From: a virus | Taxonomy: Duplodnaviria; Caudoviricetes | Virus record (IMG/VR): IMGVR_UViG_3300012953_000109 | Span: 1 to 32,454 of that record | Reading direction: 5' to 3' (one strand) | Length of the DNA stretch: 32,454 nt | Part shown: one piece after another, positions 1-32,454 of the stretch | Numbering within the stretch: position 1 is the stretch's first letter | How the letters are laid out: the number at the start of each line of letters is the position of its first letter | Notes under the pieces: generated by a model | What the model was told of the DNA's origin: nothing | Databases searched by the model: none | What the model saw: the letters and a program-made list of their open reading frames with translations, nothing else | Made by a program: the position numbers and the translations under genes

Positions 1-2
1 TA

Positions 3-1208
3 GAGTTTGCCAATAAAAATACTGTTATAAACAGTCAGGCAATAAATATTAATGCTGCTGATGCTAGAGATGCAAATAACAACCTTCTTATAAACAGTTC
101 CGGTGCTTCACCAACAGACCCAACACTAGTTCAAGGGCAGTACAATACATTGTTAAATACTAATGAATTTGCACTAGGTGCAGTAGGTTCACTAGAGGGA
201 AGTTACAACTTCGTTGTTGGAACAACTAGTGGTGCTATAACCGGTGTGAACTCAGGCAACAATGTAATCCTTGGCTCATTAGCGACTACTATGGTAGCAG
301 CTAATGACCAACCTATGAGGGGCAATGTTGTTGTTAATGGTTCTAGTATCTCTTTTAATAATAATTTAGCTACCACAGACAGTAACAACACTAGAAATAA
401 TTATGTGCTAGGTTGTTCAAATATGGAGATAACAGATTCAGGGCGTAACTTTATTTTTGCAAATGAATTTTCAGGCACAACTTCATTTCAGTTCAATAAT
501 TTCAACTTTCTGTTTGGGATTACGAGTTATAATGGAGCTCAACAGTCAAGTATTTCAACCGGCTCCGACTATAACTTCTTATTTAATGCTGATGATGTTA
601 CATTAACCGGTTCTAACAATGTCGTGTTTGGGCAGATGAATGCCACAATTACCGGAGACAAACATACGATATTAAATTCATCAGGAACTGTTGGAGGAAC
701 AAGCAATGTTCTTTTAAGCGGTAGTCAACACACCGTTTCAGGAAACAATAATGTTCTGAGTGGTAATAGCCTTCAAACAGCAAATGGTACAAACAGAAGT
801 TTGAATATAGGTAACACTAATGTTATAGGTGTGTCGGGAGCAGCTAACAATAGTGCAGCTATAGGTAATAACATTAACATTAGCTCCGGTGCTAACAATG
901 CTGCTTTTGGTACTAATATAACTGTAACAAATTCAGTAAACTCTTTTACTGTAGGAAAAAACAATAATGACTCAGTAGTTAATAATCAAGGTAATCCATG
1001 TTTTCAAGTAGGTGTTGGTAGTTCGTCAGGTAACAGAAGAAATGCCTTAAACATTATCAATACATCGGGTCCTCTACATGGAGTGATTTACATGGACCAA
1101 TTGGTCAATCAAAACTACGCAAATGACGCAGATGCAGCAGCAGCAGGAATTGGATTAGGAGGGTTATATCATACTAACGGAGTAGTAAAAATAAACCTTC
1201 TGCCGTAA
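3..1208 (+). CDS. Tail fibre/spike-like protein with beta-helix or YadA-head-like repeats (5'-truncated by the window edge)
   Basis: The frame is open from position 3 (EFANKNTVINSQ...), so the TTG at 150 is not the true start. N/G/S/T-rich short repeats (GSNNVVFG, GTSNVLLSG, GNNNVLSG, NSAAIGNN, NNAAFGTN, NSFTVGKNN), a FQVGVG...RRNA motif and a C-terminal NYANDADAAAAGIGLGGLYHTNGVVKI cap of the type seen in Bacteroidota fibre/adhesin proteins. Confidence 0.65.
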   Translation, partial: EFANKNTVINSQAININAADARDANNNLLINSSGASPTDPTLVQGQYNTLLNTNEFALGAVGSLEGSYNFVVGTTSGAITGVNSGNNVILGSLATTMVAANDQPMRGNVVVNGSSISFNNNLATTDSNNTRNNYVLGCSNMEITDSGRNFIFANEFSGTTSFQFNNFNFLFGITSYNGAQQSSISTGSDYNFLFNADDVTLTGSNNVVFGQMNATITGDKHTILNSSGTVGGTSNVLLSGSQHTVSGNNNVLSGNSLQTANGTNRSLNIGNTNVIGVSGAANNSAAIGNNINISSGANNAAFGTNITVTNSVNSFTVGKNNNDSVVNNQGNPCFQVGVGSSSGNRRNALNIINTSGPLHGVIYMDQLVNQNYANDADAAAAGIGLGGLYHTNGVVKINLLP

Positions 1209-1224
1209 TTTAATATTAAATTAA

Positions 1225-2030: not shown

Positions 2031-2283
2031 ACTTAAGATAATAAACGCAGGATACAGGGCTGTAGAGCAACTAATCAAAGTTGCTAAAGAAGATATAATA
2101 AAACCTGACCCTGATGATGAGTTGGCTGCCGATAGATTGAAGAATGCAGCAGCCACTAAAAAGCTTTGCATCATGGATGCTTTTGAGATATTAAACAAAA
2201 TAGAAACAGAAAAAGAAGCATTAGAACTTGTAAACGAACCTACTCGTTCTAAGCAAGGATTCGCAGAAAGAAACTCTAAATGA
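2011..2283 (+). CDS. Small helical protein, candidate terminase small subunit
   Basis: ATG at 2011 preferred over TTG at 2005. Lies immediately upstream of the large terminase and overlaps it (ATGA). Function is inferred from position only. Confidence 0.45.
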   Translation: MNLKETKLKIINAGYRAVEQLIKVAKEDIIKPDPDDELAADRLKNAAATKKLCIMDAFEILNKIETEKEALELVNEPTRSKQGFAERNSK

Positions 2284-4502
2284 TAAAAGAATTAAAAGAC
2301 TATATACCCAAGTCAGTTCTTGTAAATAAAAACAGGGCTAGAACTTGGTTGTATGGTTATAATTTAAAATATGATTTGGTTATTATTTCAAAAACAGGTC
2401 AGATAGGAAAAGTTATTGAAATATCCAACGTAAGAATTGGACTGCCTAAAGCCCCAAAAGAAATATATAAAAGACATGAAAAAAAATATGAGCAGTATTG
2501 GGAAAGAAGAGAAACACCAAAACAATTAGATAAAATTCGTTCTATATTTCAATGGAATGAAATGCCAAGGGATTTTAAAAACCGTTGGGTTGACTATATA
2601 GAAAAGGAATTTGAATATCGTGAGGAAGGCTATTGGTTTTATAGTAATGGAAAACCAACTTATATTACAGGTTCTCATTATATGTATTTACAATGGACCA
2701 AGATAGATGTAGGGTATCCTGATTTTAGAGAAGCCAACAGAGCTTTGTATTTGTTTTGGGAGGCGTGTAAGGCTGATTCAAGAAGTTATGGAATGATATA
2801 TCTTAAAATTAGAAGGTCAGGTTTTTCATATATGAGTTCTTCTGAATGTGTTAACAAAGCCACGATATCAAAAGATTCACGAATAGGTATACTTTCTAAA
2901 ACAGGAGCAGATGCAAAAAAAATGTTTACAGACAAAGTGGTTCCTATATCAAACAGTCTTCCGTTCTTTTTCAAACCAATTCAGGATGGAATGGACAAAC
3001 CCAAATCTGAACTAGCATATAGAGTTCCTGCCTCAAAGATTACTAAGAAAAATATGCACGAGGTTTTTGAGGACGATTTAGAAGGTTTGGATACCACGAT
3101 TGATTGGAAAAATACTGACGACAACTCTTATGATGGAGAAAAACTTTTATTGTTAGTTCATGATGAAAGTGGTAAATGGATAAAACCCAATAACATTCTA
3201 AATAATTGGGGCGTTACAAAAACCTGTTTAAGATTGGGTAGTAAGATAATTGGGAAATGCATGATGGGTTCCACTTCTAATTCATTAGAAAAGGGTGGAG
3301 ATAATTTTAAAAAACTTTTTGAAAGCTCAGATGTTCTGAACAGAAATGCGAATGGTCAAACTAAAAGTGGATTGTATTCTTTGTTTATACCTATGGAGTG
3401 GAACATGGAAGGCTTTATAGATAGATATGGGCAACCTGTATTAGAAAAACCTAAGGTTGAGCTTCAAGGAGTGGATGGTGACTATATATATACAAGCAGT
3501 ATTGATTATTGGAAAGCTGAGGTTGATTCCTTAAAGAATGACGCTGACGCTTTGAATGAGTTCTATAGACAATTTCCTAGAACGGAAGCTCATGCTTTTA
3601 GGGATGAAAGTAAATCTTCAATATTTAATTTAAGTAAGATATATCAACAAATAGATTTTAATGACTCTGTTATAAGAGAGCATAACATTACACAAGGTAA
3701 ATTTATTTGGCAAGACGGTATTAAAGACACAAAGGTTATTTGGGTTCCCACAAAAAAAGGAAGGTTTCATATATCTTGGTTACCTGCTGTACATATTCAA
3801 AATAATTTTAATGAAAGAAACGGGCTCAAATATCCCGGGAATGAACATCTAGGTGTATTCGGTTGTGACTCTTATGATATTAGTGGGGTTGTGGGTGGAG
3901 GAGGTTCCAATGGTGCTTTGCACGGTTTGACTAAATTTTCAATGGACGATGCCCCAAGTAATGAATTTTTTTTAGAATACATTGCGAGACCTCAAACTGC
4001 AGAGTTGTTTTTTGAAGATGTTTTAATGGCTTGTGTTTTTTACGGTATGCCAATACTTATAGAAAACAATAAGCCAAGGTTATTATATCATTTTAAAAAT
4101 AGAGGGTATAGGAGATTTTGTTTAAACAGACCGGACAAACATTCAACAAAACTTTCAAGGTCCGAAAAAGAATTAGGCGGTATACCCAACACAAGCGAAG
4201 AAGTAAAACAAGCTCATGCCGCAGCTATCGAATCTTATATAGAAAAATATATAGGATTAGATACAGAAGAAGTGTTTAGACCTAGTGATGAAATGGGGAC
4301 GATGCCTTTTAATCGTACTCTTTTGGATTGGGCTAAATTTGATATTAACAATAGAACCCGTTACGATGCTTCAATAAGCTCAGGTTTAGCCTTAATGGCT
4401 AATCAAAAACATCTGTATACTCCTGTAAAAAAAGAGTCAAAAATAAAGATTAACTTTGCAAGGTATACAAACACGGGAACAAAAAGCGAATTAATTAGAT
4501 GA
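2280..4502 (+). CDS. terL: Terminase large subunit
   Basis: Walker A variant KIRRSGFS, Walker B LLVHDESGKW, motif III GSTSN, RNase H-like nuclease motifs FGCDSYD, LIENNK and YDASISSGLALMA. 740 aa, as in crAss-like TerL. Confidence 0.93.
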   Translation: MIKELKDYIPKSVLVNKNRARTWLYGYNLKYDLVIISKTGQIGKVIEISNVRIGLPKAPKEIYKRHEKKYEQYWERRETPKQLDKIRSIFQWNEMPRDFKNRWVDYIEKEFEYREEGYWFYSNGKPTYITGSHYMYLQWTKIDVGYPDFREANRALYLFWEACKADSRSYGMIYLKIRRSGFSYMSSSECVNKATISKDSRIGILSKTGADAKKMFTDKVVPISNSLPFFFKPIQDGMDKPKSELAYRVPASKITKKNMHEVFEDDLEGLDTTIDWKNTDDNSYDGEKLLLLVHDESGKWIKPNNILNNWGVTKTCLRLGSKIIGKCMMGSTSNSLEKGGDNFKKLFESSDVLNRNANGQTKSGLYSLFIPMEWNMEGFIDRYGQPVLEKPKVELQGVDGDYIYTSSIDYWKAEVDSLKNDADALNEFYRQFPRTEAHAFRDESKSSIFNLSKIYQQIDFNDSVIREHNITQGKFIWQDGIKDTKVIWVPTKKGRFHISWLPAVHIQNNFNERNGLKYPGNEHLGVFGCDSYDISGVVGGGGSNGALHGLTKFSMDDAPSNEFFLEYIARPQTAELFFEDVLMACVFYGMPILIENNKPRLLYHFKNRGYRRFCLNRPDKHSTKLSRSEKELGGIPNTSEEVKQAHAAAIESYIEKYIGLDTEEVFRPSDEMGTMPFNRTLLDWAKFDINNRTRYDASISSGLALMANQKHLYTPVKKESKIKINFARYTNTGTKSELIR

Positions 4503-6934
4503 AGGATGTAAAAATAGACATTAAGTCTGCAGCTTTTCCTGACCAATTTGTTTCAGACGCAGATAAGGCTACAGACGAATATGGATTAAAAATAGGACAA
4601 GCTATACAATACGAATGGTTTCGTAGAGATGGAATGAGCTGTAGGTTTTACGACCAATTTAGACAGTTCCATAAATTGCGATTATACGCAAGGGGAGAAC
4701 AATCAATTAGAAAATATAAGGATGAACTTGCTATAGATGGTGATTTGTCGTATTTAAATCTTGATTGGACACCGGTTCCTATAATACCAAAATTTGTAGA
4801 TATAGTAGTAAACGGAATGTCTGATAGACTATTTAAGGTTAGTGCTTATGCACAGGATGCTATGTCACAATCTAAGAGAAGTAAATATCAAGACATGGTA
4901 GAAGCCCAAATGGTTTCTAAAGAATTTTTGAATAAGATAAAAGAAAAGTCTTCGCTTGACCCATTTACAGTTTCACCTGAAGAACTGCCTAATAGCGATG
5001 AAGAGTTATCTCTTTATATGCAGCTTAACTACAAACCATCTATAGAGATTGCTGAGGAGGAAGCTATAAATACAATATTTGAAGAAAATCATTATGTAGA
5101 TTTAAGAAAAAGACTTGATTATGATTTAACCGTACTAGGTATAAGTGTGGCAAAGCATGAGTTTTTACCGGGTTCGGGAGTGCAAGTAAGTTATGTAGAC
5201 CCTGCTAATGTTGTTTATAGCTACACAGAGGACCCTCATTTTAAAGATTGTTTTTATTGGGGAGAAGTTAAAACACTACCAATGACAGAGCTTTTGAAGA
5301 TAGACCCAAGTTTAACAAACGAGCAATTAGAAGAGATTAGTAAATACAGTCAAAATTGGTATGATTACTATAATGTCGCACAGTATTATGAGAATGATAT
5401 GTTTTATAGAGATACCTGCACTTTATTGTATTTTAATTATAAATCTACAAACAAGATTGTATATAAGAAAAAAATAATGGAAACCGGAGGAAGCAAGGTT
5501 ATTGAGAAGGATGACCAATTTAATCCACCGGAAACCGTAATGGAAGAAGGAAGGTTCGAAAAAATAGAAAAAACTATTGATGTTTGGTATGATGGAGTTA
5601 TGGTTATGGGGACAAATATTCTTTTAAAATGGGAGTTAGCTCATAACATGGTCAGACCAAAATCTGCAAGTCAACACGCTATACCTAATTATGTTGCTGT
5701 AGCACCTAGAATGTATAAGGGTGTTGTGGAATCTCTTGTAAGAAGAATGATACCTTTTGCTGATTTAATTCAAATAACTCACTTGAAGCTTCAGCAGGTT
5801 ATTGCTCGAGTAGTACCCGATGGGGTGTTTATAGATGCTGATGGATTGAACGAAGTAGACCTAGGCACGGGCAATGCTTATAATCCTGAAGATGCTTTGC
5901 GTTTGTATTTTCAAACAGGTAGTGTTATCGGGAGGAGTTACACACAGGACGGGGACTTTAATCAAGCAAGGGTTCCTATAAAAGAAATAAATACTAACTC
6001 AGGTGCAAGTAAAACACAAATGCTTATTGCCAATTACAATCATTATTTAAACATGATAAGAACGGTGACAGGATTAAACGAAGCTAGAGATGGTAGTACG
6101 CCTGACCCTAATTCTTTGGTTGGCTTACAAAAACTTGCAGCCTTAAATTCTAATGTAGCAACAAGACACATACTTGATGGTGCTTTGTATATATATAGAA
6201 CTTTATCAGAGGCTTTAACTTACAGAGTTGCTGACATATTAGAGTATTCAGATTTCAAAGATGACTTTGTAAATAAAATAGGTAAATTCAATGTCAGTAT
6301 ATTAAATGATATACAAGATTTATATATATATGATTTTGGAATCTTTATAGATGTAGCTCCTGATGAAGAGCAAAAAGCAAAACTTGAAGCCAATATACAG
6401 ATGGCTTTATCAAAGAATGATATAAACTTAGAAGATGCAATTGATATTAGGGAGCTTAAAAATATAAAACTTGCTAATCAACTTTTGAAACTTAAAAGAA
6501 AACAGAAGCAAGAAAAGGAAAATGAGATGGAGATGCAAAAGCAACAGCAACAAGCTCAAATTAATATGCAGTCTCAACAAATGGCAGCACAAGCGGCAAT
6601 GCAGAAAATGCAACTAGAAGGTCAACAAAAGATGCAAATTAAACAAGCTGAGATAGCTTTTGAAATTGAAAAAATGAAAAACGAAGCTCAATTAAAATCT
6701 CAATTGATGGCAGAGGAGTTTCAGTACAACCAACAGCTTAGAAATATCTCAGAGACCGCTTTACAACAAAGAGAGTCTGAAAGAGAAAAAGCTAAGAGTC
6801 AAAGAATATCACAACAAAATTCAGAGCAATCACAACTTATAAATCAAAGGAAAAATAATCTTCCTGCTCAGAGGTTTGAATCAAATGAAGATAGTTTAGA
6901 TGGTTTTGATTTAGCTGAATTTGACCCAAGATAG
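4499..6934 (+). CDS. Portal protein
   Basis: 811 aa directly after terL (ATGA overlap). PIIPKFVDIVVNGM N-terminal motif, TGLNEARDG motif and a long Q/E/K-rich coiled-coil C-terminus typical of podovirus/crAss-like portals. Confidence 0.88.
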   Translation: MKDVKIDIKSAAFPDQFVSDADKATDEYGLKIGQAIQYEWFRRDGMSCRFYDQFRQFHKLRLYARGEQSIRKYKDELAIDGDLSYLNLDWTPVPIIPKFVDIVVNGMSDRLFKVSAYAQDAMSQSKRSKYQDMVEAQMVSKEFLNKIKEKSSLDPFTVSPEELPNSDEELSLYMQLNYKPSIEIAEEEAINTIFEENHYVDLRKRLDYDLTVLGISVAKHEFLPGSGVQVSYVDPANVVYSYTEDPHFKDCFYWGEVKTLPMTELLKIDPSLTNEQLEEISKYSQNWYDYYNVAQYYENDMFYRDTCTLLYFNYKSTNKIVYKKKIMETGGSKVIEKDDQFNPPETVMEEGRFEKIEKTIDVWYDGVMVMGTNILLKWELAHNMVRPKSASQHAIPNYVAVAPRMYKGVVESLVRRMIPFADLIQITHLKLQQVIARVVPDGVFIDADGLNEVDLGTGNAYNPEDALRLYFQTGSVIGRSYTQDGDFNQARVPIKEINTNSGASKTQMLIANYNHYLNMIRTVTGLNEARDGSTPDPNSLVGLQKLAALNSNVATRHILDGALYIYRTLSEALTYRVADILEYSDFKDDFVNKIGKFNVSILNDIQDLYIYDFGIFIDVAPDEEQKAKLEANIQMALSKNDINLEDAIDIRELKNIKLANQLLKLKRKQKQEKENEMEMQKQQQQAQINMQSQQMAAQAAMQKMQLEGQQKMQIKQAEIAFEIEKMKNEAQLKSQLMAEEFQYNQQLRNISETALQQRESEREKAKSQRISQQNSEQSQLINQRKNNLPAQRFESNEDSLDGFDLAEFDPR

Positions 6935-6961
6935 CTGAAAAAAATACATAAAAATATTTAT

Positions 6962-6969
6962 TAACTTTG
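6962..6969 (+). promoter_or_regulatory. Bacteroidota-type -7 promoter box (TAACTTTG)
   Basis: Matches TAnnTTTG in the intergenic gap, ending 17 nt before the ATG at 6986. No clear -33 element. Confidence 0.65.
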
Positions 6970-6985
6970 TTTAAAATTTAATTCA

Positions 6986-8131: not shown

Positions 8132-8157
8132 ATTAATAATTTTTAAAATATAAAAAA

Positions 8158-9624
8158 ATGGCAGGAAATTTTGCAGCAAGTCCAACATTCTCGTTGCAGC
8201 CATCGGCTCAACAAGTTCCGTTGTCGACTAATTATATTACCAACTTTGATTTCTTGAATCAGTATCTTCCTGATACATATGAAAAAGAATTTGAAAGATA
8301 TGGTAACAGAACACTTTCATCATTTATTAAAATGGTGGGTGCAGAAATGCCTTCTAACTCTGACCTTATCAAATGGGCAGAACAAGGAAGGTTACACATC
8401 AAATATACCAATGTTACATCCGCAGCAGCCGCAGGTTCTGCAACAGCTACTTTAACAGTTGTTGACTCAGCTATCGGTGATAACCCCGCAGGAACAGTAA
8501 TTACAGGTGCAAACCCATACAACGCTGACGCAGCTATTGCAGTCAGAGTGGGTCAAACAGTTGTAGTATCTGACAATGCAGGTGGCGGTGAAAACAAAGC
8601 AGTTGTTACAAGCGTCTCTACAGGAGCCGGTGGTAACGGTGTTGATTTTGATGTCGCATATTATGAATCAGCAGGTCAAGTATCTGCAGGTCCATTCACC
8701 GTATTTATTTACGGTTCAGAATTTGAAAAGGGAACAGCAGGTATGCAGGGCTCTTTACAATCAGATGACTACATCTTTGAAAACAACCCAATCATCCTAA
8801 AGGACACTTACTTAGTGAACGGTTCTGATATGGCTCAAATTGGTTGGATTGAAATTTCAACAGAAGACGGAGGTTCAGGATATTTATGGTATCTAAAATC
8901 AGAACATGAAACAAGGTTAAGATTTGATGACTACCTAGAAACATCCATGATAGAAGCAGTACCGGCAGAAAATCCTGCAGGTGGTCCTCAATCAGGAGCT
9001 TCTGCAGCAGGGCTTATTGGTTCTGAAGGTGTATTCCATGCAGTTGGAACAAGAGGTAACTTATGGTCGGGAGGTAATCCTGATGCATTAGCTGACTTCG
9101 ATTCAGTCATTGATAGATTAGACAAGCAAGGTGCAATAGAGGAAAATGTAATTTTCTTAAACAGACAATTCGGTTTCGATATTGACGATATGTTAGCAGC
9201 TCAAAACTCTTACGGAGCAGGTGGTACATCTTATGGACTATTTGACAACGATGAAGAGATGGCGTTAAATTTAGGTTTCACAGGATTCCGTAGAGGTTAT
9301 GACTTCTACAAGTCTGATTGGAAATACCTAAATGACCCTACTATGAGAGGCGGCATTTCAGGCACAGGTGCAATTAATGGTTTATTAGTACCGGCAGGTT
9401 CTACAAGTGTTTATGACCAAGTTCTTGGTAAAAACGCTAAGAGACCTTACCTTCATGTAAGATATCGAGCTTCAGAAACTGAAGATAGAAGATATAAGAC
9501 ATGGATTACAGGGTCAGCAGGTGGAGCAGCTACTACAGACATTGATGAAATGAAGGTTAACTTCCTTTCTGAAAGATGTGTTTGTGTAATGGGTGCGAAC
9601 AACTTTGTATTATTCGAAGACTAA
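8158..9624 (+). CDS. Major capsid protein
   Basis: 488 aa; IKWAEQGRLH, FIYGSEFEKG, NNPIILKDTYLVNGSD and a terminal FLSERCVCVMGANNF motif. Position after the scaffold, followed by a strong terminator. Confidence 0.88.
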   Translation: MAGNFAASPTFSLQPSAQQVPLSTNYITNFDFLNQYLPDTYEKEFERYGNRTLSSFIKMVGAEMPSNSDLIKWAEQGRLHIKYTNVTSAAAAGSATATLTVVDSAIGDNPAGTVITGANPYNADAAIAVRVGQTVVVSDNAGGGENKAVVTSVSTGAGGNGVDFDVAYYESAGQVSAGPFTVFIYGSEFEKGTAGMQGSLQSDDYIFENNPIILKDTYLVNGSDMAQIGWIEISTEDGGSGYLWYLKSEHETRLRFDDYLETSMIEAVPAENPAGGPQSGASAAGLIGSEGVFHAVGTRGNLWSGGNPDALADFDSVIDRLDKQGAIEENVIFLNRQFGFDIDDMLAAQNSYGAGGTSYGLFDNDEEMALNLGFTGFRRGYDFYKSDWKYLNDPTMRGGISGTGAINGLLVPAGSTSVYDQVLGKNAKRPYLHVRYRASETEDRRYKTWITGSAGGAATTDIDEMKVNFLSERCVCVMGANNFVLFED

Positions 9625-9638
9625 TACAAACCCTAAAT

Positions 9639-9672: not shown

Positions 9673-9694
9673 AATAAAATTTAAATTTAATATA

Positions 9695-11829: not shown

Positions 11830-11832
11830 ATT

Positions 11833-12756: not shown

Positions 12757-12757
12757 A

Positions 12758-18136: not shown

Positions 18137-18146
18137 TAATATAAAT

Positions 18147-19082: not shown

Positions 19083-19083
19083 T

Positions 19084-19956: not shown

Positions 19957-19962
19957 TTTTAG

Positions 19963-19970
19963 TATCTTTG
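19963..19970 (+). promoter_or_regulatory. Bacteroidota-type -7 promoter box (TATCTTTG)
   Basis: TAnnTTTG in the short gap before the cupin/ejection-protein block. Confidence 0.55.
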
Positions 19971-19978
19971 TGAATAAT

Positions 19979-21519: not shown

Positions 21520-21520
21520 T

Positions 21521-23413
21521 ATGAGTGCAACTGAAGGATACGGATATGTAGATAGACAAGTAGACAGTCAAATAGATTGGTCAGCAGTCGCATCAGGCTT
21601 TACAGATACTCTACAAGCAGAAATTGCAGGAAGACAAGCAAAAAAGGACGAGCTTGACAAAGCAGCTCGTGAAATGCAAGAAAGACTTGCTAATGCCCCT
21701 TCAGGTACATATACTGAAGCAAATGAATTTGCTGCTCAATTTGCGGCTGATGGTTCTGCTGCTATGTTAGCAGCCAATCGTGCATTAAAAGCCGGTCTCT
21801 TACAACCTAGACAATACTCTTTGATAGCAGCCAACCTTAATGATTCAACCGACAAGGTGTACGGTATGGCTAAAAAATACGAAGAAGTGTATAAGCTTAA
21901 AATGGAAAGGCAAAAAAATGGTGAATCTCAAGCATATGAAGGTTGGGAGATGGACCAAATAGGAGGTCTTTATAATATTCAAAACACCAAAGCATTAGTT
22001 AATCAAAACAATGGTATGGTTTCTATTGGTCATTGGGAAGATGGAAAAATGGACGGAGACCCAAATCAATTTATGACTGTGAACCAAATGACTGCCGCAC
22101 TAAATTCTCAATATGATAATTTTGATTTACAAAAAGCTATCGGAGATGACAAGTCAAGACTTGGTATAATAGATTCACTAAAAATGCAGTATGGTGGAGA
22201 AGGAGATTTAGAATATTTAATAAAGACTAGGTCACAAGGCGGTAAGTATAGTGCAGATGATGAAGAAATAAAATTATACCAAGAGTGGAGAGATGAAACC
22301 ACAAAAAGATTTATGGTGAATGATTGGGATGTTGTTTCCGTTTTAACTGATGAAGGTTTAACAGTTAATGGTAAAGCATATACTTTTAGTAAAAACCCTG
22401 CAGACAAAGGCACAGAGGGCATAATATTTATTAACACCGAAAAATCAGCTAGAGGAAACCCTGAATTAACTGAGGCACAAAAGAAAGCAGCAGAAGAACA
22501 TATCAAAGGACAAATAGATGCTTCAATAAATAAAGAAATAACTACTTCAACAAGTAGAAGAGGTTTCAAACCACAAGACAAAGTGAACAGAGAGTCTTCA
22601 CAAAAAGCATTCACAGAGTTGGCAAAATTATATTATGATGACGATGCAGGTATTGAATCAACCCTTGGGTTTGTGAAAGACCTTAACAAAGATTCTAAAG
22701 ACCCCTCATTAGTTATAGACTATATAGATAGAACTACCAACGGTGTGAGAGTACAGTTTGCAGATGGAACAACAGAAACTGTTGACTTTGTAACAGGAAC
22801 AGGTCAGACGAAAAACATGAGAGAGTTTGTCACGGAACTTATTAATAAAGTTAAAATTACTGACAATGTTGGAGATGTATTAAACCAAGGGCTTAATATA
22901 CCAAGACTTAAAAATGAAACTGATGCAGAATTTAAAAAGAGAACATCACTAAACTTAGGTAAAGACACTAGAGGAAAAGGATTAGGAAGAACTAAAACAG
23001 TCAAGCAAAAAGGTGAGTCCCCTGCTCAAACTTATGAAAGAGCAGTTGTGGATACAGCTATTGCAGAATACAACCCTAACGAAATGGCTAATGATAGTGG
23101 CAATGTAGATGATAGGCTTACTAATTTATTAGTAGAACTAAGATTGCCCGGATATGCAGTAGATGGTGGAGAAATCAAAGACCCTGATGGTAAAGTAATT
23201 GCAACCTACGAAGATGATGATGCTGATTCTATAGCGGCAGCTCTTGATGCATTAAGCGATGAAAGTGTGAGTGTATTCGCAACACAAGATATCACAGACC
23301 AAGCCAACCAAACTAAAGGAATGGGACGAACTGAGAATATATTCTTCGGAGAAAGGTTTAATGAAGAGTTCAAAACAGACAATAACCCTGATGGAAGTTT
23401 TAGCAACTTTTAA
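21521..23413 (+). CDS. Putative internal virion/ejection protein (630 aa)
   Basis: Helical N-terminus (IDWSAVASGFTDTL...); lies between the small and giant ejection proteins. Confidence 0.55.
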   Translation: MSATEGYGYVDRQVDSQIDWSAVASGFTDTLQAEIAGRQAKKDELDKAAREMQERLANAPSGTYTEANEFAAQFAADGSAAMLAANRALKAGLLQPRQYSLIAANLNDSTDKVYGMAKKYEEVYKLKMERQKNGESQAYEGWEMDQIGGLYNIQNTKALVNQNNGMVSIGHWEDGKMDGDPNQFMTVNQMTAALNSQYDNFDLQKAIGDDKSRLGIIDSLKMQYGGEGDLEYLIKTRSQGGKYSADDEEIKLYQEWRDETTKRFMVNDWDVVSVLTDEGLTVNGKAYTFSKNPADKGTEGIIFINTEKSARGNPELTEAQKKAAEEHIKGQIDASINKEITTSTSRRGFKPQDKVNRESSQKAFTELAKLYYDDDAGIESTLGFVKDLNKDSKDPSLVIDYIDRTTNGVRVQFADGTTETVDFVTGTGQTKNMREFVTELINKVKITDNVGDVLNQGLNIPRLKNETDAEFKKRTSLNLGKDTRGKGLGRTKTVKQKGESPAQTYERAVVDTAIAEYNPNEMANDSGNVDDRLTNLLVELRLPGYAVDGGEIKDPDGKVIATYEDDDADSIAAALDALSDESVSVFATQDITDQANQTKGMGRTENIFFGERFNEEFKTDNNPDGSFSNF

Positions 23414-23426
23414 ATAAAGAAAAAGG

Positions 23427-26400
23427 ATGAATGAAGAAGCGTTTCAATTATTATATAATCACGCAGTTAGTCAGGGATATAGAAAGTCTCGTGAAGAATT
23501 TCTTGAGCTTCTTGGTTCCAATAAAGAGGCTTTTGATTTAAGTTTTCAATTTGCTACAGAAGAAGGGTATCAAAAAACCCCTGATGAATTTGCTAAGTTA
23601 TTAGGTGTAACTATACCACAGGAAGTCCCTGTAGTAGATAATACAATACAAAACCCACAACTACAACCGGAGTTAGTAGAGGTTGCTCAAGACAATACTC
23701 GTGTCAACCTTCCTCCAACATTATATCCTGAGATTCCCGGATACCAACAACCGGGATTACCTGATGATTTTCCTACTCCTGAAGAATTTCAACAAGCTCA
23801 ATTTCGAGATGCTGAAGAAAGATTAGCCGCAGAACAAAAAGCAAAAGAACAAGAGCTTGAAGAAAAATACACATCTGAACAAGCCAATATAGAAGTTGTT
23901 AAATCCCCTGATTTTCAAAGTGCTTTACTCAATACTAATGAAAGAATATTTGATGAGTCTATAGAGTCAGGTGTTGGCTTTTTAAATAATCAGTTTGAAG
24001 ATTATAATTTTATGTTTAAAGTAGATGAGGGATTTTTTGATGATGAAATAACTGTAATGGCAGAGAATGGAAACTCTTTGCAATTTGATACCGATGAATT
24101 AGAAGCGGCTAAAAACTTTATGAAAGAAAATGCCACTCCTAAAAAAGAAGAGACAGAAGTTACAGACGAACAATACACCGCATTGAAAGTAATGAATATG
24201 CGTAAAGGAGGTTTGTTAGACAATGGCAGAGTAGAGGCATATGGTTGGGAAACTAAACAAGAAGGAGGTAAAACCATAGTTTATCCCACTTTATTTCCCA
24301 AAAGCCCTGACTCTAATTACGGAACTAGAAGAGCATATTGGTTAAAACTTTCAGGCGATGAAGCTTTAGAAGAAGCTAAGAAAAGAAATGAGGTATATAC
24401 ATTTGATGACTCTGTGGAAGCTAGAGATTTTGTTAATGGTAGTTGGAAAGATGAAAACACTTTTGAATTATATAGTAGAGAATATTTTGACAAAAATGCT
24501 GATGGTATTGACTATAAGACTTACAAACAAAAGTTTGATGAGTACGAAAAAATCATGAATACTTTGGAATCATTTGAAGAACTAGGCGTAGAGTCAGGTT
24601 TAGATATAGAAGACGCTGAAGATAAGTTAGATGAAGAAAGCATTGAGCTACTAAAAGACAGCAACTACTTTGTTGACGGCAAACAAGTTCGTGTCACAAA
24701 AGATATTATTGAAGCACTTGAAAAAAAGGCTGAGGAGTTGAGTGTGGTTGTTCAAGATGAGGATTTAGTAAAAGTCAGAGAGGATATAGACTATAATTAC
24801 CATCAATATTGGCGTGACAAATCAGTAAGAGCTGCTAGAGAAAATCAAAATATGATTAAGGCTCAAGACGCATTACAAGTTGCATCATTAAATAAATATG
24901 GAGTAAGAGTAGAAAACTTAGGGGAACTAGATTTACAAAAACCTGAAGAAATAAATGACGCTAGAGCTTTGCAATTATCTTATGAAGCAGCAGCAGCAGA
25001 TAGACGAATGGCTGCTGACCAATTTGAGATTGCTAATATGTGGTATAATGACAAGTTTGATAAAAGTGTATACAGAGAATGGGAAGAAGGTTGGTCTGCA
25101 GTTACTAACGAATGGGATAAAGGTTGGGCTCGTGGAGAAGCTGCTGACATAATTCTACAAATGGGACTTGGTTTAGAAAACAAAGACAGTAAGGCAATGG
25201 CTATAGAGATTTCCAAAGCCCTTGCTGAATCTAAAAGAGGAGGTCAAGCTCGTGTATTAGATAGGTGGCAAAAAGCAAGAGGTGGTTTATTTGGTAGAGA
25301 AACCCTTCAAGTCCTTAAAGAAAACCCTCTTGATTTAGGTATGCAGTTTATGGCTTATAGTTTAAGTCAGATGTTACCATATGGAGCTGAACTATTAGCA
25401 ACCAATGTTGGTATTGGTACAACAACAGGAGCCACAATAGGAGCAGCAGGAGGCACAGTAGCTATACCGGGACTAGGAACCGGAGTTGGAGCTGTAGGTG
25501 GTGGAATAATAGGTGCTAAAAGTGGACTTGTTACCGGAGGTTATATGATTGGACACGCCATGGAGTTTACAAATGCTATCATTGATACGGCTGAAGCTTA
25601 TGGTTATGATATGACTAATCCTGATGATGTGACAAAAGCATTAGTCAATGAAGATGTGTGGGGTGAAGGTGCAGCTTTGGGACACAAGAGAGGTATTCCA
25701 ATTGGTATAGTGAATGCTTTGTCTTTTGGTTTAGCAGGTAATGTAATTAAAGTTGGAAGAACAGCAAGTGCGTTTAAAAAAGCCGGAGCATTCTTGGCAG
25801 AGAGGGTAACTTTTGACCCTGCCATGGAAGCCACAGGTGAGTTTTTAGCTCAGGTGGTTGCCGGTCAAGACATAGATGGTAAAGAGATATTTGCTGAAGG
25901 TTATGGAGGATTATTTAGTAATGCACCTGCAGCAGCATTCAGTGGTTTTGTAAACACTCTTAACAACAGAACTTCAAAGTTATCAAAAGACTTGTCTACA
26001 CCCAAAGGTATGCTTGATGAATCCTATAATGCTTCTGATGGCAGAATATATGATTGGACCAAGAGAATGGTGAAGTTGAAAAAAATAACACCTGAGCTTG
26101 GACAAAAAATAGAAATCCAATTAGGTAACAAGCAAACAGCAAAAGGACTTCTTAAGGGTGAAAAGATTAAAAATAAAAAAACAGCAACGCTAGAAATAAT
26201 GAAGTTGCTTGATGAAAAAAGCAAGTTAACAAACACACCGGAAAGAAAGAAAATATTTAAAACAAAAATAAAAGAGATTGATGCTCGTATAGCAGGTATT
26301 GCAGATGGTAGTATCAAAGTGGAACCTACCAAGAAAACAGCACCAACATATCTGATTGGTAAAGAAAATTTTGAAACCAAGGATAAGTTCATGGAAAGGA

Positions 26401-29400
26401 TAAATGCCTTGACTCCTGAAGAAATAAACACTACTGAAATATTCATTGGTAATGACAATAAAACTGCATTAGAGGTAAATGAAATCTTTAATGTAAAAAG
26501 AGATAGTGAAGTAGATGGAAAACCAAAAGAAACACCTACTGTGACTACTGAGACTACTGAGACTACTGAGAATCTAGAAGTTGGGGTTACACCTTTGTCA
26601 TTTACTCAGTCTAGTAAGACTAGCAATTTTACTTACGAAGAAAATATAACTGATGAAGCCAAGGCAGATGATGAACAGACCACGGGTGTAAAAAAAGTTA
26701 CTTTTGATTTTACAAAGGAAAACAAAAAAACAAAAAAGAAAAGGAAAGGAAAAGGAGCTGCTGTTCCTATAGAAGAAACAAGATTTAAAAACTTCAAAGA
26801 AGCTATTATAAAAAAAGAAAATTTAGAAGACTTTGATATTGAGGTTAAAGAAGTTAAAATTGTGCCTAAAACAACCAAGAGTGCAGCAGCAGGTAACACT
26901 ATATTCAAGTTAAAAATTAAAAAGAAATCTGATGGAAAAGGTGGGTTTGCTCCATCAACTGAAATAGATATTTTTATAACCCCTGAGGAGTTGGCAGAAG
27001 CGTCTGCAATTACTGAAGAAAATATTAGTCCTGAAGTAGAAAATGAACTCAACGCACTTGAAGAGTTGTTTAAAAACAATAATCCACAGTTTCAAGTCGT
27101 ATCTTCTAACACTCGTACTCAAAAAATAGCCGACTTAAAAGAGGAGGCAATGAGACAAATGGAGGCATTAGAAAATATTCAAGAAGAGACATTTGAATTG
27201 ACTGAACCTGATACCGATGTTACTGTAACCCCTATAGAAATAACTCAGAATACAGAACTAGCAAACAAGATACCAAGGATAAGTCTTGATGAGATTATAG
27301 GAAAGGAAGCTAATTTTTTAATGGCAGACCAATTAAAAGTAGATGAAAAAAACAACCTATTGGGAGGACCTTTTTTCCCCTTAACATCTAAAAATTTTGG
27401 TAAAGTAGCTTGGGCATCTATAGATAAAACTGCAGCTAATAAAATAATAGACGGGGCTGTTGACTCTGAAATATCTGTGGTATTTAATATGGGCGAAACA
27501 GCAATGGACTCTAATGTGGTTCTAACAAACTTAACCATAGATAAGATAATAGAAAACCCTAGGCTCAATAATGAAGAGATTATTGTAGAAATTAAAGATA
27601 GATTAGCTAGTATGGTAAATACTATAGTGGCAGTAGATAAAAAAAATAACAGACACATAAAAGGAAGACCTAAGTTTCTAGAGGATTTAAATAAAGTTAA
27701 TACACTTGAAGATTTAAAAAGATTCTTTGCGGAAGATATAACTAGCACAGAGGACAGAGCCAAAGCAATCAGGGAAGTGGTAGCGAGTAGAAAGCAGTCT
27801 ATGCCGGACACCCCTTCAAAGGTGAGAATGGAAACGGCAGGACTTTTTATAGAAGATATAAGAGCTGAAATTAGAGAGCAGTTTACAGATGAATTACCGG
27901 CAGGAGCTATGACTATGGTTGTTGAGGTACTAGACAAACAAGGAAATAAAGTTACTGAAGCTACTAAAGACCAAGCATTAATAGATAGAAAAGAACAAAA
28001 AGAACTAGGTCTCACACCTCATCCAAACTACCCATTTTTTATTAGAGGTAGGGCAGTCGGTTTGTTAGAAGAAACTGTGCCGGTTTATACTGTTGCTGAA
28101 CCTATACTTGATAAGATAGCAGCAAAAAATTTAAACAGAGTTTCAATGGATTCTGCAAAAGCAAGTGGTCTTAGGAGTTTAATGATGAGAGCATCAGAGA
28201 CTTTTGAAGTGATACCTCCTACATTTACCAAGTATCAAAAACTTTTAAATCTTTTGAGTCGTGCCTTTCCCGGAATAGAAGTTGTTTCAAGCCAAGAAGC
28301 GTTTAATGCTATGATGGAGAATGCTTATGCAAAAAAGCTTATAGTAAAAGGAATGATGAATCGAGATGGAGCCTCAGTTTACGGTGGTGTTGTTGATGGT
28401 AAGGTCTTTTTAAATCCCAAACATGATAGTATGAATGCTGCTATACATGAGTTCGGTCACATATGGTTAAACACAGCCAAAACTGCACGACCTGATTTAT
28501 ATAAAAAAGGGTTGGAACTTGTGTCAGATAGTCCGTATATGGATGAAATCAAGAATAATAAGGCTTACCAAAGAATTATTAAAGAGATGGAGAAGGAAGG
28601 TAGAAGTCAAGAAATGATAGACAACTACATAAAAGAAGAAGCATTGGCTACTGCTATAGGTGATAAGGGTGAGAGTTTTATACTAGCATCTAAAGAGAAG
28701 GGCTTTAAGGTTTGGCTTAAAAAATTATTCAATTACATAAAATCATTAATGGGATTGTCTAAGAGAACCAAGAAAGATATCACCAACATGACTATGGATG
28801 AGTTTGTGGAAGGAGTTGTTGTTGATTTACTTTCAGGTGAACCTGTGTTTGCAGAATTTGAAGCCAATAATTTAGAGAACTCATTTCAACTGATGGCTAA
28901 GATGGATGCTAAGAAATCAACTATGGCTAACATAATTATGACAGCACGACAGTTGGATATATCTGATGCTGCAATAAGGTTATATTTAAGAAAGCAAGGC
29001 TTCAAAGTTGTCGAAATAAACGAGGCAATGAAGGTAGATACAGACCTTTTTAGTAGTGTGCCTCAAATGTTTGGAAACATAAAAGGTGGTATGAGTGTGG
29101 GAATGCAGGTGTTCGGCAGAGTGATGGCTCAGGTTAAGAAATTTGCTAAGAAAAAAAATAGCACTCTTTCAGAAGTAAGAGCCAAAGCTCAGGAAATATT
29201 AAAACAACAACCTGAGTTTCAAGAACTCAATAAAACACTACAAGATGATTTACTTGTTGCCCTAGATAAACAGTTGGCTATTCAAAAAAATCTTGAGGTA
29301 GCCAATGACATCAAGAACATGAAGGAAAGAACAAGGCAACAAAAACTTGGGGCTAGACAATTAAGTGAGCTACAAAGGCAAATGAAAAGTTTTATATTTA

Positions 29401-32400
29401 AGAATATGCCGAAGACCAAATGGACTTCTCCACAAGTAAAAAAGTTTTTAAACAATATAGCAGACGCTAAGTTCTATAAAGATTTCTATACTGTAAAACA
29501 ACCGGATGATATCAGAATGGTTTTGGATAATGTAATCCAAATGATTAATAAACAAAACACTAGAGATTCATTTAGTGTTTTTGACAAACTACTTGGAACT
29601 AAACTTAAAGTAAAAGCTAGTACAAGATTTAAAGGAAAGTTTTTACCCAACTTGCAAGATGCTATAAATAAGTTAAAGAACAATATCATAAACACCAACC
29701 CAACAAATGAAGAAGATGTAACGGCTATAAACAATAAGATTACAGAACTTAGAAAGGAGTTTGATAAGATTAAAAATAAGAATGTATATACAGTAGATGA
29801 TGAAATTAATCTTGAAACTTTACAAATAGCCATATTGTATAACGAAGCAAGGTTGATGGAAGACACAAATCCACACAAATCTTCTACACTAGATGAGGCA
29901 TCTACATTGTTAAAAGAACTTTTTGTTCAGGGTCGTCAACAGTTCAAGGCTGACATGGAACAAAGAAGGTTGAGATACAATGAGCAAAAAAGAAAATTAT
30001 ATAAAGATGTTTCAGGGCTTGACAATGACTTTAATGACAAGAAGCAAACCAATGATGCACTTAGAAAACTAAACAACATATTAAAAAGGATTGACAATAA
30101 AACTTTAACTAAGTACGCCAACAAATTAGCTGCTGCATTCAAAAGCTTTTTTGCCGGAAATATGGGTATAGATGTTCTCTCCGAACAAATATCTAGAGAG
30201 TCGACCGATATATATAGCACAGAAGCAAACAAGTTAATATACGACCCTATATATAGAGCTAGACTTGAAAGAGACAAAGGAGTGGTTTATATGCAGGATT
30301 TAATTCGTTCCAAAATGGAAGAGTATTTTGGTAAAAATTATGAATTGATATTAGATGACTTCAGTAAAGTCACAATTAATTTCGAAGCCAATCCAAAAAG
30401 GGCTGCAGAAATAAAACAAAAACTAAAAACCCTTGACAAAAATTCCATAGAGTTTCAGCAGCTTACAAATGAATTGAATGATATGACTGTTCAACTCACA
30501 CAAAATCAAATGTTCTATATATATAATCAAGGGCTAGATACTGCTAACCACCCGGGTCTTCAAAACAATGAATTACTACAAGACAGTCAATTTGATTTGA
30601 ATGAATTGCTAAAACAAATAGATGTAAAATTAGACCCAAGAATAAGAAGATGGGCAGAGTGGCAGGTGCAAGAGTTTTTCCCTAGTGTATACCCAAGATA
30701 TAATTCTGTGTATAAAGATGTATACAGAACTAATATGCCATGGAACAGTAAGTATGCAGGAAGACTTCAAAGAACTTTAGACCAAGAAGAAATAGGTATA
30801 TTGGATTTGAAAGATATGAATAACAAAAAATATCAAACAAATATTGGTGGTCAATCTACTATAGCAAGGATAAATAATGCAGCACCTATACAGTTTGTTG
30901 ATGGGAACCAACAGTTGAGAAGATATATTCAAGACATGGAAAACTTCAGAGCATATGCTATACCACTTAGAGATGTCAATAAATTGCTGAATGAAGCTCT
31001 CATAAAACAAGCAATGAATTACAAAGTTGGGTTTGATATACATAATATGATTTACCAAAACTTACAGATGGTAGCCAATCCTTATGGTAAAAGGTCTACA
31101 GGACCGGTAGATAAGTTGTTTGATAAATTCTTTGACATCACCTCGGGGTTATATATATATAAAGCTTTGGCTGCGAACCCTACAATCATGCTGAAACAGT
31201 TCTCATCATCCATGGCTTTTGCTGACTACATAGGTTATAGAAATTGGTTTACTTATGGTACAAAAGAATTAAGAAATGGAATAGGTACTTGGAATAAAAC
31301 ATGGCAAGAAATGTACAAGAACTCACCTACCTTACAGCAAAGATATACAAGAAGGGATTTCGCTAGGATGTTTGAAGGGTATAATCAAAGACCAAGCAAA
31401 AGTGTTTTCGAAAAGCTTAATATAAAGCTTCCAAAAAACATCAACGAAAAGTTAAGTCGTAAAAAGATTGACCTTGCCCGAGTAGTCGATGCAATGATGT
31501 GGTTTGTTAAAACAGGAGATAAAGGTGGTGTTATGGGTAGCATACCTGCATACAGTTATTACAAAGACCAATTCAAAAAAAACAACCCACAGTCAACCGA
31601 CCAACAGGCAATAGATTTTGCATTAGACAAAGTAACCAAACAAATAATAACTACTCAGCAAGATTTTGATGCACTCAACAGAGACGCATATCAAAACAAT
31701 AGATATATGAGATTGTTTCAGTTGTTTACATCCTCGCCTAGAGCTTTGCTAAGGAGAGATATACAAAATATGGTAGGGTTGTACACTAAAATGATTAAGC
31801 TAGACCCAAACGCAGGTAAGGGTTCACTAGGTCAGAACTTAAGGGGTGTGTTTACTTATCACTTGTTATTACCTTTGACATTTCAATTCATTGCATCAGG
31901 CTTTCCCGGTATATCACGAGAGTGGAGAGACGAAGATGATTTTGATTTTATTAGGGCAGCTCTATTAGGGACTTTCAATTCAGCTTTTATAGTCGGTGAC
32001 CTTTTAACTTATATATTTGATTCGATATCCAACAAGCCGTGGGCAAAACCAATACGAAACATACCTATCCTTGACCAACTTCAAGCTTTAAATGATGACT
32101 ACACAAAATATAAGAATGCAGGGTCAGAGACAACTGCAGAGAAATATCAATTCAGAACTATGGTTAAGTTGGCTGAACTCTTTGGTGTACCTGCTAACAA
32201 CTTTGCTAAGTTCTATGACAACTATTCTAAAATATTATTCGGTGATGTCAAGAGTCCCGGAGAAGCTTTCTTGAGAATGTTCAACTATTCAGAATATCAA
32301 ATTTATGGTTATGAAGAATTAAAACGAAGAGCAAACACAAATACATCTTCTTCAAGACGAACAAGGAAAACAAGAAAAAGATATTCTAAAAAAGAAACAG

Positions 32401-32423
32401 AAGAATTTGATTGGTTACAGTAA
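23427..32423 (+). CDS. Giant polyvalent ejection protein (2998 aa) with a zincin-like metallopeptidase domain
   Basis: Uninterrupted 9-kb ORF. VYGGVVDGKVFLNP...AAIHEFGHIW...EEALATAIG zincin motif, glycine-zipper segment and helical, hydrophobic C-terminal region. Last gene of the tail block. Confidence 0.75.
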   Translation: MNEEAFQLLYNHAVSQGYRKSREEFLELLGSNKEAFDLSFQFATEEGYQKTPDEFAKLLGVTIPQEVPVVDNTIQNPQLQPELVEVAQDNTRVNLPPTLYPEIPGYQQPGLPDDFPTPEEFQQAQFRDAEERLAAEQKAKEQELEEKYTSEQANIEVVKSPDFQSALLNTNERIFDESIESGVGFLNNQFEDYNFMFKVDEGFFDDEITVMAENGNSLQFDTDELEAAKNFMKENATPKKEETEVTDEQYTALKVMNMRKGGLLDNGRVEAYGWETKQEGGKTIVYPTLFPKSPDSNYGTRRAYWLKLSGDEALEEAKKRNEVYTFDDSVEARDFVNGSWKDENTFELYSREYFDKNADGIDYKTYKQKFDEYEKIMNTLESFEELGVESGLDIEDAEDKLDEESIELLKDSNYFVDGKQVRVTKDIIEALEKKAEELSVVVQDEDLVKVREDIDYNYHQYWRDKSVRAARENQNMIKAQDALQVASLNKYGVRVENLGELDLQKPEEINDARALQLSYEAAAADRRMAADQFEIANMWYNDKFDKSVYREWEEGWSAVTNEWDKGWARGEAADIILQMGLGLENKDSKAMAIEISKALAESKRGGQARVLDRWQKARGGLFGRETLQVLKENPLDLGMQFMAYSLSQMLPYGAELLATNVGIGTTTGATIGAAGGTVAIPGLGTGVGAVGGGIIGAKSGLVTGGYMIGHAMEFTNAIIDTAEAYGYDMTNPDDVTKALVNEDVWGEGAALGHKRGIPIGIVNALSFGLAGNVIKVGRTASAFKKAGAFLAERVTFDPAMEATGEFLAQVVAGQDIDGKEIFAEGYGGLFSNAPAAAFSGFVNTLNNRTSKLSKDLSTPKGMLDESYNASDGRIYDWTKRMVKLKKITPELGQKIEIQLGNKQTAKGLLKGEKIKNKKTATLEIMKLLDEKSKLTNTPERKKIFKTKIKEIDARIAGIADGSIKVEPTKKTAPTYLIGKENFETKDKFMERINALTPEEINTTEIFIGNDNKTALEVNEIFNVKRDSEVDGKPKETPTVTTETTETTENLEVGVTPLSFTQSSKTSNFTYEENITDEAKADDEQTTGVKKVTFDFTKENKKTKKKRKGKGAAVPIEETRFKNFKEAIIKKENLEDFDIEVKEVKIVPKTTKSAAAGNTIFKLKIKKKSDGKGGFAPSTEIDIFITPEELAEASAITEENISPEVENELNALEELFKNNNPQFQVVSSNTRTQKIADLKEEAMRQMEALENIQEETFELTEPDTDVTVTPIEITQNTELANKIPRISLDEIIGKEANFLMADQLKVDEKNNLLGGPFFPLTSKNFGKVAWASIDKTAANKIIDGAVDSEISVVFNMGETAMDSNVVLTNLTIDKIIENPRLNNEEIIVEIKDRLASMVNTIVAVDKKNNRHIKGRPKFLEDLNKVNTLEDLKRFFAEDITSTEDRAKAIREVVASRKQSMPDTPSKVRMETAGLFIEDIRAEIREQFTDELPAGAMTMVVEVLDKQGNKVTEATKDQALIDRKEQKELGLTPHPNYPFFIRGRAVGLLEETVPVYTVAEPILDKIAAKNLNRVSMDSAKASGLRSLMMRASETFEVIPPTFTKYQKLLNLLSRAFPGIEVVSSQEAFNAMMENAYAKKLIVKGMMNRDGASVYGGVVDGKVFLNPKHDSMNAAIHEFGHIWLNTAKTARPDLYKKGLELVSDSPYMDEIKNNKAYQRIIKEMEKEGRSQEMIDNYIKEEALATAIGDKGESFILASKEKGFKVWLKKLFNYIKSLMGLSKRTKKDITNMTMDEFVEGVVVDLLSGEPVFAEFEANNLENSFQLMAKMDAKKSTMANIIMTARQLDISDAAIRLYLRKQGFKVVEINEAMKVDTDLFSSVPQMFGNIKGGMSVGMQVFGRVMAQVKKFAKKKNSTLSEVRAKAQEILKQQPEFQELNKTLQDDLLVALDKQLAIQKNLEVANDIKNMKERTRQQKLGARQLSELQRQMKSFIFKNMPKTKWTSPQVKKFLNNIADAKFYKDFYTVKQPDDIRMVLDNVIQMINKQNTRDSFSVFDKLLGTKLKVKASTRFKGKFLPNLQDAINKLKNNIINTNPTNEEDVTAINNKITELRKEFDKIKNKNVYTVDDEINLETLQIAILYNEARLMEDTNPHKSSTLDEASTLLKELFVQGRQQFKADMEQRRLRYNEQKRKLYKDVSGLDNDFNDKKQTNDALRKLNNILKRIDNKTLTKYANKLAAAFKSFFAGNMGIDVLSEQISRESTDIYSTEANKLIYDPIYRARLERDKGVVYMQDLIRSKMEEYFGKNYELILDDFSKVTINFEANPKRAAEIKQKLKTLDKNSIEFQQLTNELNDMTVQLTQNQMFYIYNQGLDTANHPGLQNNELLQDSQFDLNELLKQIDVKLDPRIRRWAEWQVQEFFPSVYPRYNSVYKDVYRTNMPWNSKYAGRLQRTLDQEEIGILDLKDMNNKKYQTNIGGQSTIARINNAAPIQFVDGNQQLRRYIQDMENFRAYAIPLRDVNKLLNEALIKQAMNYKVGFDIHNMIYQNLQMVANPYGKRSTGPVDKLFDKFFDITSGLYIYKALAANPTIMLKQFSSSMAFADYIGYRNWFTYGTKELRNGIGTWNKTWQEMYKNSPTLQQRYTRRDFARMFEGYNQRPSKSVFEKLNIKLPKNINEKLSRKKIDLARVVDAMMWFVKTGDKGGVMGSIPAYSYYKDQFKKNNPQSTDQQAIDFALDKVTKQIITTQQDFDALNRDAYQNNRYMRLFQLFTSSPRALLRRDIQNMVGLYTKMIKLDPNAGKGSLGQNLRGVFTYHLLLPLTFQFIASGFPGISREWRDEDDFDFIRAALLGTFNSAFIVGDLLTYIFDSISNKPWAKPIRNIPILDQLQALNDDYTKYKNAGSETTAEKYQFRTMVKLAELFGVPANNFAKFYDNYSKILFGDVKSPGEAFLRMFNYSEYQIYGYEELKRRANTNTSSSRRTRKTRKRYSKKETEEFDWLQ
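26543..26569 (+). repeat. In-frame 9-bp tandem repeat (GACTACTGA)x3
   Basis: Three exact copies encoding TTETTETTE in a linker of the giant protein. Confidence 0.85.
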
Positions 32424-32454
32424 TGCCGTTTAGAAAAATAGGAAAAAATAAAAA
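32423..32454 (+). CDS. Start of the next ORF (MPFRKIGKNK...), 3'-truncated
   Basis: TAATG stop/start overlap; the frame is open to the window end. Confidence 0.45.
   Translation, partial: MPFRKIGKNK

Follow-up and report, generated by a model that had tools for sequence, protein, structure and literature searches.

Virulent double-stranded DNA phages are known to eliminate restriction sites (Rusinov et al. 2018, PMC6286503), and both this elimination and the avoidance of sites in hosts concern almost only the sites of orthodox Type II systems (PMC6286503, PMC4687349); these and the other papers below are cited for the passages that bear on the question. As for the word CCAG itself, SMRT sequencing (single-molecule, real-time) of the lactococcal 936-group phage Phi15 gave the motif CC(6mA)G, which was assigned partly by inference to its orphan methyltransferase M.Phi15I; homologous genes, presumed to protect against host restriction, occur in 41 of 90 phages of that group (PMC4190342, PMC4759559). 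In the halovirus Hardycor1, CCAG is under-represented (0.11) among several avoided words, which was attributed to host restriction-modification (PMC7911831). We report here on the absence of CCAG and its complement CTGG from the IMG/VR virus record IMGVR_UViG_3300012953_000109 (positions 1 to 32,454; "the window" below means this whole stretch of 32,454 nt), a fragment of an uncultured podophage. Site avoidance is a known strategy, and CCAG is without a described cutter in the literature searched (REBASE and most supplements lay outside it): no CCAG-cutting endonuclease was found there, nor was a report of a CCAG purge in flavobacterial phages.

Absence of CCAG and CTGG from the window

Neither word occurs once in the 32,454 bases, where a maximal-order Markov model expects 149.8 copies on both strands together; CCAG/CTGG is the most depleted tetramer of the window under this model. 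The codon null (300 synonymous shuffles, gene by gene) gives about 135 copies in total, with 59.5 for CCAG (minimum 45) and 75.8 for CTGG (minimum 56). The complete absence reported by the first-pass annotation of this sequence is thus borne out, and 0 copies against 135-150 place CCAG within site avoidance as defined by a compositional bias below 0.1 at an expectation above 15. The annotation had also seen codon pairs making detours around the word, which the counts bear out in full: the Pro codon CCA never stands before G (0/138, compared with 93/253 elsewhere), codons of the form NCT never precede Gly (0/175), and neither the Gln codon CAG (0/48) nor Trp codons (0/84) follow C. Its two examples, CCACCGGAA at 5525-5533 and ACCGGT at 240-245, are correct. 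So is its remark that CCGG is conspicuously frequent (67 copies vs 38.6 expected); CCAA is enriched as well (167 vs 114), and these two words take up part of the lost CCAG/CTGG. CTAG, which it called abundant, is not enriched, with 77 copies vs 85 in the genes and 79 vs 92 in the whole window.

The loss extends to every extension of the word. CCAGA, CCAGC, CCAGG and CCAGT are all at zero (24.7, 11.3, 11.3 and 12.2 expected by codon shuffle), and so are all four left extensions. Since all four CCAGN words are gone, including CCAGA, CCAGC and CCAGT, a depletion limited to Dcm/EcoRII sites (CCWGG) is ruled out, as the annotation had argued. Both strands are purged though the genes all lie on the plus strand, which makes duplex DNA the target and not mRNA. 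A degenerate pattern covering both CCAG and CTGG would include CCGG and CTAG. A single-strand or RNA target was rejected on this ground, as the sense strand retains CCGG and CTAG but neither CCAG nor CTGG. A CYAG-type target (the motif of M.Phi93II/M.Phi145II) was rejected likewise, given the CTAG count of the window and the fact that just 11 of the 35 purged loci have lost CTAG. Avoidance of a CRISPR protospacer-adjacent motif was set aside by reasoning alone: escape from CRISPR needs no genome-wide loss.

CCAG is not the only word to be missing. GATC (0 vs 81), GGCC (0 vs 23), GCGC (0 vs 11), CGCG (0 vs 5) and GAATTC (0 vs 8.8) are absent from the window, and ACGT (2 vs 38) and CAGTG/CACTG (1 vs 30) nearly so; that GATC, GGCC, GCGC and ACGT are purged together with CCAG points to restriction-site avoidance. 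Leftover copies of purged words stand at 2428, 16658, 25940 and 18057 (ACGT twice, CAGTG once and GAGCG once).

Relatives and the maintenance of the purge

The annotation had proposed counting the word in related phages. The relatives considered are the best 80 of 617 terminase-matching stretches (about 7,700 are estimated in IMG/VR), and 35 of the 80 contigs prove purged, 10 low and 35 near normal. The purged ones together hold 8 sites in 439,049 bases, where 2,262 are expected; none of the 80 is a one-way locus, i.e., one with sites on one strand only. Among the larger records, those without any site are G002-G005 (54-61 kb); 2 sites are left in G001 and 4 in MW202828, a freshwater record, while G006, G007 and G008 keep 356, 154 and 263. 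The clade has marine and freshwater members. Even sister phages differ (G001 and G008 have terminases that are 91% identical), and the terminase tree requires at least 11 switches of the CCAG state, with keeping lineages nested among purged ones; this is a quick IQ-TREE of 82 rows, unrooted, on which gain and loss are indistinguishable. The number of changes and the differing sisters fit host switching.

Five close relatives of the window, four at 85-90% nucleotide identity and one near 70%, have no CCAG/CTGG site at all. Their 11,109 aligned substitutions created no new site on either strand, compared with roughly 116-156 expected (scaled from control word pairs, which arose 167-298 times), so the purge is held by selection. 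In 18 non-independent pairs of a keeping and a purged phage, 0 of 808 aligned CCAG sites survive in the purged partner, and control words survive in 1,776 of 4,579 cases. The absence of CCAG is upheld by ongoing selection, not by drift or mutation bias. None of 40 variants listed, out of some 3,100 in the contigs, makes a site, which is too few to serve as evidence.

The four right-hand extensions were followed in the 72 loci with at least 5 expected copies of each CCAGN (8 of the 80 were dropped). All four are lacking in 30 loci and none in 37; five lack one or two (four CCWGG only, one two words). The relaxed lineages L009, L042 and L053 have all four. This all-or-none behaviour favours a single tetramer as the target in the clade.

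Different sets of classic palindromes are purged among these phage genomes, and when independent pairs are compared, CCAG loss is not significantly associated with loss of GATC (median p 0.375). ACGT loss is typical of the window's close relatives and is seen in none of the 80 terminase loci where enough copies are expected. A second asymmetric tetramer, CCCG/CGGG, is purged in the CCAG-keeping clade members L002, L028, L039, L068, L115-L117 and L127. A different set of 80 viral loci, each chosen by a short C5 methyltransferase, contains a single purged locus, with 10 low and 69 normal ones.

Probable restriction by the host and its alternatives

The nearest cultured phages are the Flavobacterium elemo phages, whose terminase is 46% identical, and further cultured relatives infect Cellulophaga, Maribacter and Tenacibaculum, also Flavobacteriaceae; on this ground the host of the window phage is probably a member of Bacteroidota. 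We believe that a restriction-modification system of such a host may read 5'-CCAG-3'/5'-CTGG-3' as one 4-bp asymmetric site, its enzyme cutting whichever way the sites point. The phage has removed every copy by mostly synonymous changes and keeps new ones out. With a site every 220 bases or so, a 60-kb genome lacking methylation would offer some 270-300 targets, and only a total purge would escape. The system would likely be orthodox Type II (IIS, IIA or IIT), with a stand-alone endonuclease and methylation of both strands; the predicted marks are methyl-C on CTGG and, on CCAG, either m6A or methyl-C. It is very likely that the CCAG duplex is the target of a host defence of some kind. For an orientation-independent Type II system of the host targeting CCAG/CTGG we would put the probability at about 0.47; its host origin, enzyme type and methylation chemistry are what we infer. 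Both strands are lost independently of orientation, as an orthodox Type II site would have it. What favours cutting in either orientation is that neither strand regains sites despite heavy substitution, and that elimination occurs almost only at orthodox Type II sites (PMC6286503, PMC4687349).

A pattern screen for bacterial chromosomes covered 301 genomes from the order to which G011 (titled Flavobacteriales) belongs and 151 from the family of G270. The CCAG ratio falls to 0.41 in G270 (319 kb), 0.44 in G038 (143 kb), 0.46 in G316 and 0.53 in G433; these chromosomes also avoid CTAG and GGCC, and often GATC, and are candidate hosts only, by word avoidance. The eight other genomes checked alongside G316 and G433 stand at 0.65-0.86, and the ACCAGA/AGACCA screening ratio gave false leads in GC-rich genomes.

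Several observations weigh against host restriction of the kind proposed. Most genomes of the order show no CCAG avoidance, and of the 12 low-ratio genomes in the batch of G270 and G038, 10 are at 0.77-0.99. No host was found, nor a cognate enzyme among the methyltransferase loci of avoiding bacteria examined, nor a methyltransferase common to the CCAG-avoiding bacteria examined; the search with M.Phi15I gave one weak partial match in the 301 genomes of the order (its other homolog matches are one genome contig and two plasmids). In Pseudomonas phages, asymmetric IIG/S sites are reported without two-strand depletion (bioRxiv 10.64898/2026.09.23.753747). The word is also lost in part elsewhere: CCAGC is missing from phi38:1, Gundel and phi19:3, in the first together with CCAGG, and the contigs L306-L308 retain almost only CCAGT (19/22, 24/25 and 11/11 sites). 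Finally, 235 of the 626 single-base replacements of CCAG sites are compatible with deamination, mostly as changes to CCAA, although a change to CCAA is also an ordinary synonymous one.

The main rival to an orientation-independent Type II enzyme, and in our opinion an unlikely one that still has to be taken seriously, is a host that methylates one strand, CC(m6A)G, by a Type III, Type IIL/ISP or BREX-related MANTIS-like system cutting inverted pairs strongly and direct repeats weakly; some phages would then go one-way and others would purge both strands. CCAG does have an A on one strand only, in agreement with the Phi15 motif CC(6mA)G (PMC4190342). In MANTIS, restriction is strong at inverted pairs and weak at direct repeats, and virulent phages show two-strand depletion of Type III sites (both bioRxiv 10.64898/2026.09.23.753747); hosts as well as phages avoid CAGAG, a Type III site (PMC6286503), and Type III loci are present in G270, G346 and G433. 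However, strand-polarised survival of sites was found in 0 of 80 relatives, and under a one-strand mark the other strand should drift back, which the 11,109 substitutions fail to show. Elimination is, moreover, very rare at Type III sites (PMC6286503), and between avoiding bacteria the Type III methyltransferases match at only 32-42%, in partial alignments. It is less probable still that the phage itself encodes a CCAG-specific nuclease or nickase that degrades host DNA, its site-free genome being its own protection. The purge is indeed absolute, and a protecting methyltransferase was not found in purged records: Pfam shows none in 108 representative non-core proteins of purged genomes, none was found in 22 further proteins from G443 and G442, and 13 methyltransferase queries, run against partly overlapping records or loci, matched none of the 44 purged or 37 normal ones and a single one of the 13 low ones (G007). 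These scans concern the relatives, the window's record not including its early region. The clade encodes small nucleases (VRR-NUC, PDDEXK_14, DUF3799), and an early GATase/GGACT fusion module with an unknown partner is present in six purged records (G002-G005, G443 and MW202828) and was not found in G006, G007 and G008. Nevertheless, the nucleases are core genes, present also in the CCAG-keeping G006 and G007, and the module was not found in G001, which is purged; the same genomes purge differing sets of classic host palindromes, and bacterial chromosomes avoid CCAG too.

An apparent purge of the tetramer could also be the sum of several 5-bp systems in the host range (CCWGG, CCAGC, CCAGT/ACTGG and CCAGA), which we hold to be quite improbable. 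The partial losses in phi38:1, Gundel and phi19:3 named above speak for such a sum, and so do the loss limited to CCWGG in Panino and the retention of single extensions in L306-L308, L310 (mostly CCAGG, 8/10) and L321 (mostly CCAGA, 51/56). But the clade behaves in the all-or-none manner described, its relaxed lineages included, and a single kept extension would also fit one cutter combined with a phage methyltransferase. The five contigs L306-L308, L310 and L321 are non-clade phage contigs carrying short C5 methyltransferases, and possibly each shields the overlapping site from one CCAG cutter by its own enzyme. A phosphorothioate system (BREX type 4, Ssp or Dnd) marking CCAG in the host appears very improbable. 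BREX type 4 is found in Bacteroidota and modifies 4-nt asymmetric motifs, e.g., CCTC and GAAG (PMC12914056), but a CCAG motif was not found in the literature passages on such systems, and the 0.2-17% of motif sites modified in B. salyersiae (PMC12914056) are a poor fit to site-by-site discrimination. As for mutational decay, in which a methylated C in CCAG/CTGG deaminates unrepaired to CTAG, TCAG or CCAA, the enrichment of CCAA and the deamination-compatible replacements are what it would give. Cytosine deamination cannot alter an A:T pair, and 313 of the 626 replacements do so, whereas 14 give CTAG, which is not enriched; it was changes at A or T that cleared the Pro-G and NCT-Gly contexts. 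With decay as the only process, some of the about 300 sites should be left instead of none, and self-methylation by the phage followed by decay was rejected for the lack of a methyltransferase match in any of the 44 purged records or loci and for the same CTAG count. We regard decay as scarcely credible. Of the two explanations offered by the first-pass annotation, the one best supported, though inferred, is therefore a host defence directed at CCAG as a 4-bp asymmetric target, and decay to CTAG fails.

Genes, candidate enzymes and described systems

The window covers a structural module, without replication or early genes; its 20 genes are all on the plus strand and include those for the terminase, the portal and virion proteins (Table 1). 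Within the terminase gene, the plus strand has no listed ORF of at least 60 aa in another frame, and the minus strand has one of 62 aa at 2786-2974. The sequencing runs that contain its DNA are mostly marine.

Table 1. Coordinates of the features discussed (positions in the window, unless a locus is named)
Feature	Position	Strand	Remark
Whole window	1..32454	.	Without CCAG, CTGG, GATC, GGCC, GCGC, CGCG, GAATTC; ACGT, CAGTG nearly absent
5'-truncated ORF	3..1208	+	Without PHROG match; contains ACC GGT at 240-245
Terminase large subunit	2280..4502	+	PHROG 6681; marker for gathering and placing relatives
Portal protein	4499..6934	+	PHROG 6547; contains detour CCA CCG GAA at 5525-5533
Virion structural protein, likely major capsid protein	8158..9624	+	39% to Calle_1 protein annotated major capsid
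Remaining structural/virion genes, incl. 1792-aa and 2998-aa proteins	11104..32423	+	All CCAG/CTGG-free
Early GATase/GGACT module	L092:345-1466, L096:16703-18372, L394:686-5649

The one record matched by methyltransferase queries, G007, encodes two short C5-type enzymes (G007:C1 51796-52464 and 60281-60952); its CCAG count is intermediate, with relatively many CCAGG, and it is placed among purged relatives. The 1.05-Mb record G014:C1, titled an archaeal chromosome, has sharp CCAG-free blocks at 866001-878000, 886001-892000 and 898001-902000 (L113, L381-L385), one of which has the capsid-like gene of the clade; the blocks are probably phage contigs scaffolded into a metagenome-assembled genome. 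Capsid matches in contigs of such genomes name no host and are probably binned phage contigs.

Several candidate enzymes of the avoiding bacteria were rejected. PD-lambda-5, Type III, HpaII-, HinP1I-, NgoFVII- and DpnI-like loci occur in avoiding genomes, and none is shared in step with the avoidance. A C5+m6A fusion methyltransferase that has a 392-aa partner (L185:6296-9972 in G270:C8, and L276-L297) has homologs in marine Flavobacteriaceae; the methylase gives a strong PADLOC match, and the partner gives no Pfam or NCBIfam match above the cut-off. The architecture of the pair would suit a CCAG system, but it was discarded: its cassettes carry 0-21 copies of CCAG (at least one in 22 of 23), and the partner is matched in only 4 of the 151 family genomes. 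CCTTC is mildly low in these cassettes. In L162 (G021:C1 110675-114379), a D12 adenine methyltransferase adjoins a DGQHR/DndB-like protein with a nuclease-like domain.

If host restriction is the correct reading, the word missing from the phage clade gives away the target of an enzyme that we did not find described, i.e., a new restriction specificity for a 4-bp asymmetric site in aquatic Bacteroidota, directly detectable by methylome. In the aquatic methylomes of PMC8919816 (main text and one supplement), PMC6329791 and PMC12570018 (main text), a term search found no CCAG motif, and in PMC13700133 CCAG matches primers only. The CCAG state, taken together with the other purged words, could fingerprint uncultured phage-host links and date host switches. 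It is tempting to go further and to propose a common, long-lived and undescribed anti-phage system of aquatic Bacteroidota that targets CCAG, has rewritten about half of a large aquatic phage clade and has thinned host chromosomes; we consider this wider picture doubtful.

The cultured relatives (Elemovirus, Pervagoviridae and Pachyviridae phages) share the structural gene set of the window, and the purge of the tetramer is absent from all five that were checked (31-50 kb each).

The site of AciI is CCGC. This enzyme, with its composite double methyltransferase, and the Type IIS enzyme MnlI (CCTC) may serve as working models, by the likeness of a 4-bp asymmetric site and a separate endonuclease (PMC4081073); their recognition sequences differ from CCAG. 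The elimination described by Rusinov et al. resembles the present case in that short sites are wholly lost, the window being also without GATC, GGCC, GCGC and others, and differs in that the word in question is 4-bp and asymmetric; CCAG is absent from the main text of PMC6286503. In phage T7 facing the Type III enzyme EcoP15I, and under MANTIS, an asymmetric site is shaped by host restriction, as we presume it to be here; the escape there is mainly by sites on one strand (bioRxiv 10.64898/2026.09.23.753747), whereas the window phage is empty on both. Hardycor1 has an archaeal host, a partial depletion and an unnamed enzyme (PMC7911831). M.Phi15I, whose homologs were not found in the clade, has the same four-base target, and the two phages treat it in opposite ways: Phi15 methylates CCAG (PMC4190342, PMC4759559), and the window phage loses it.

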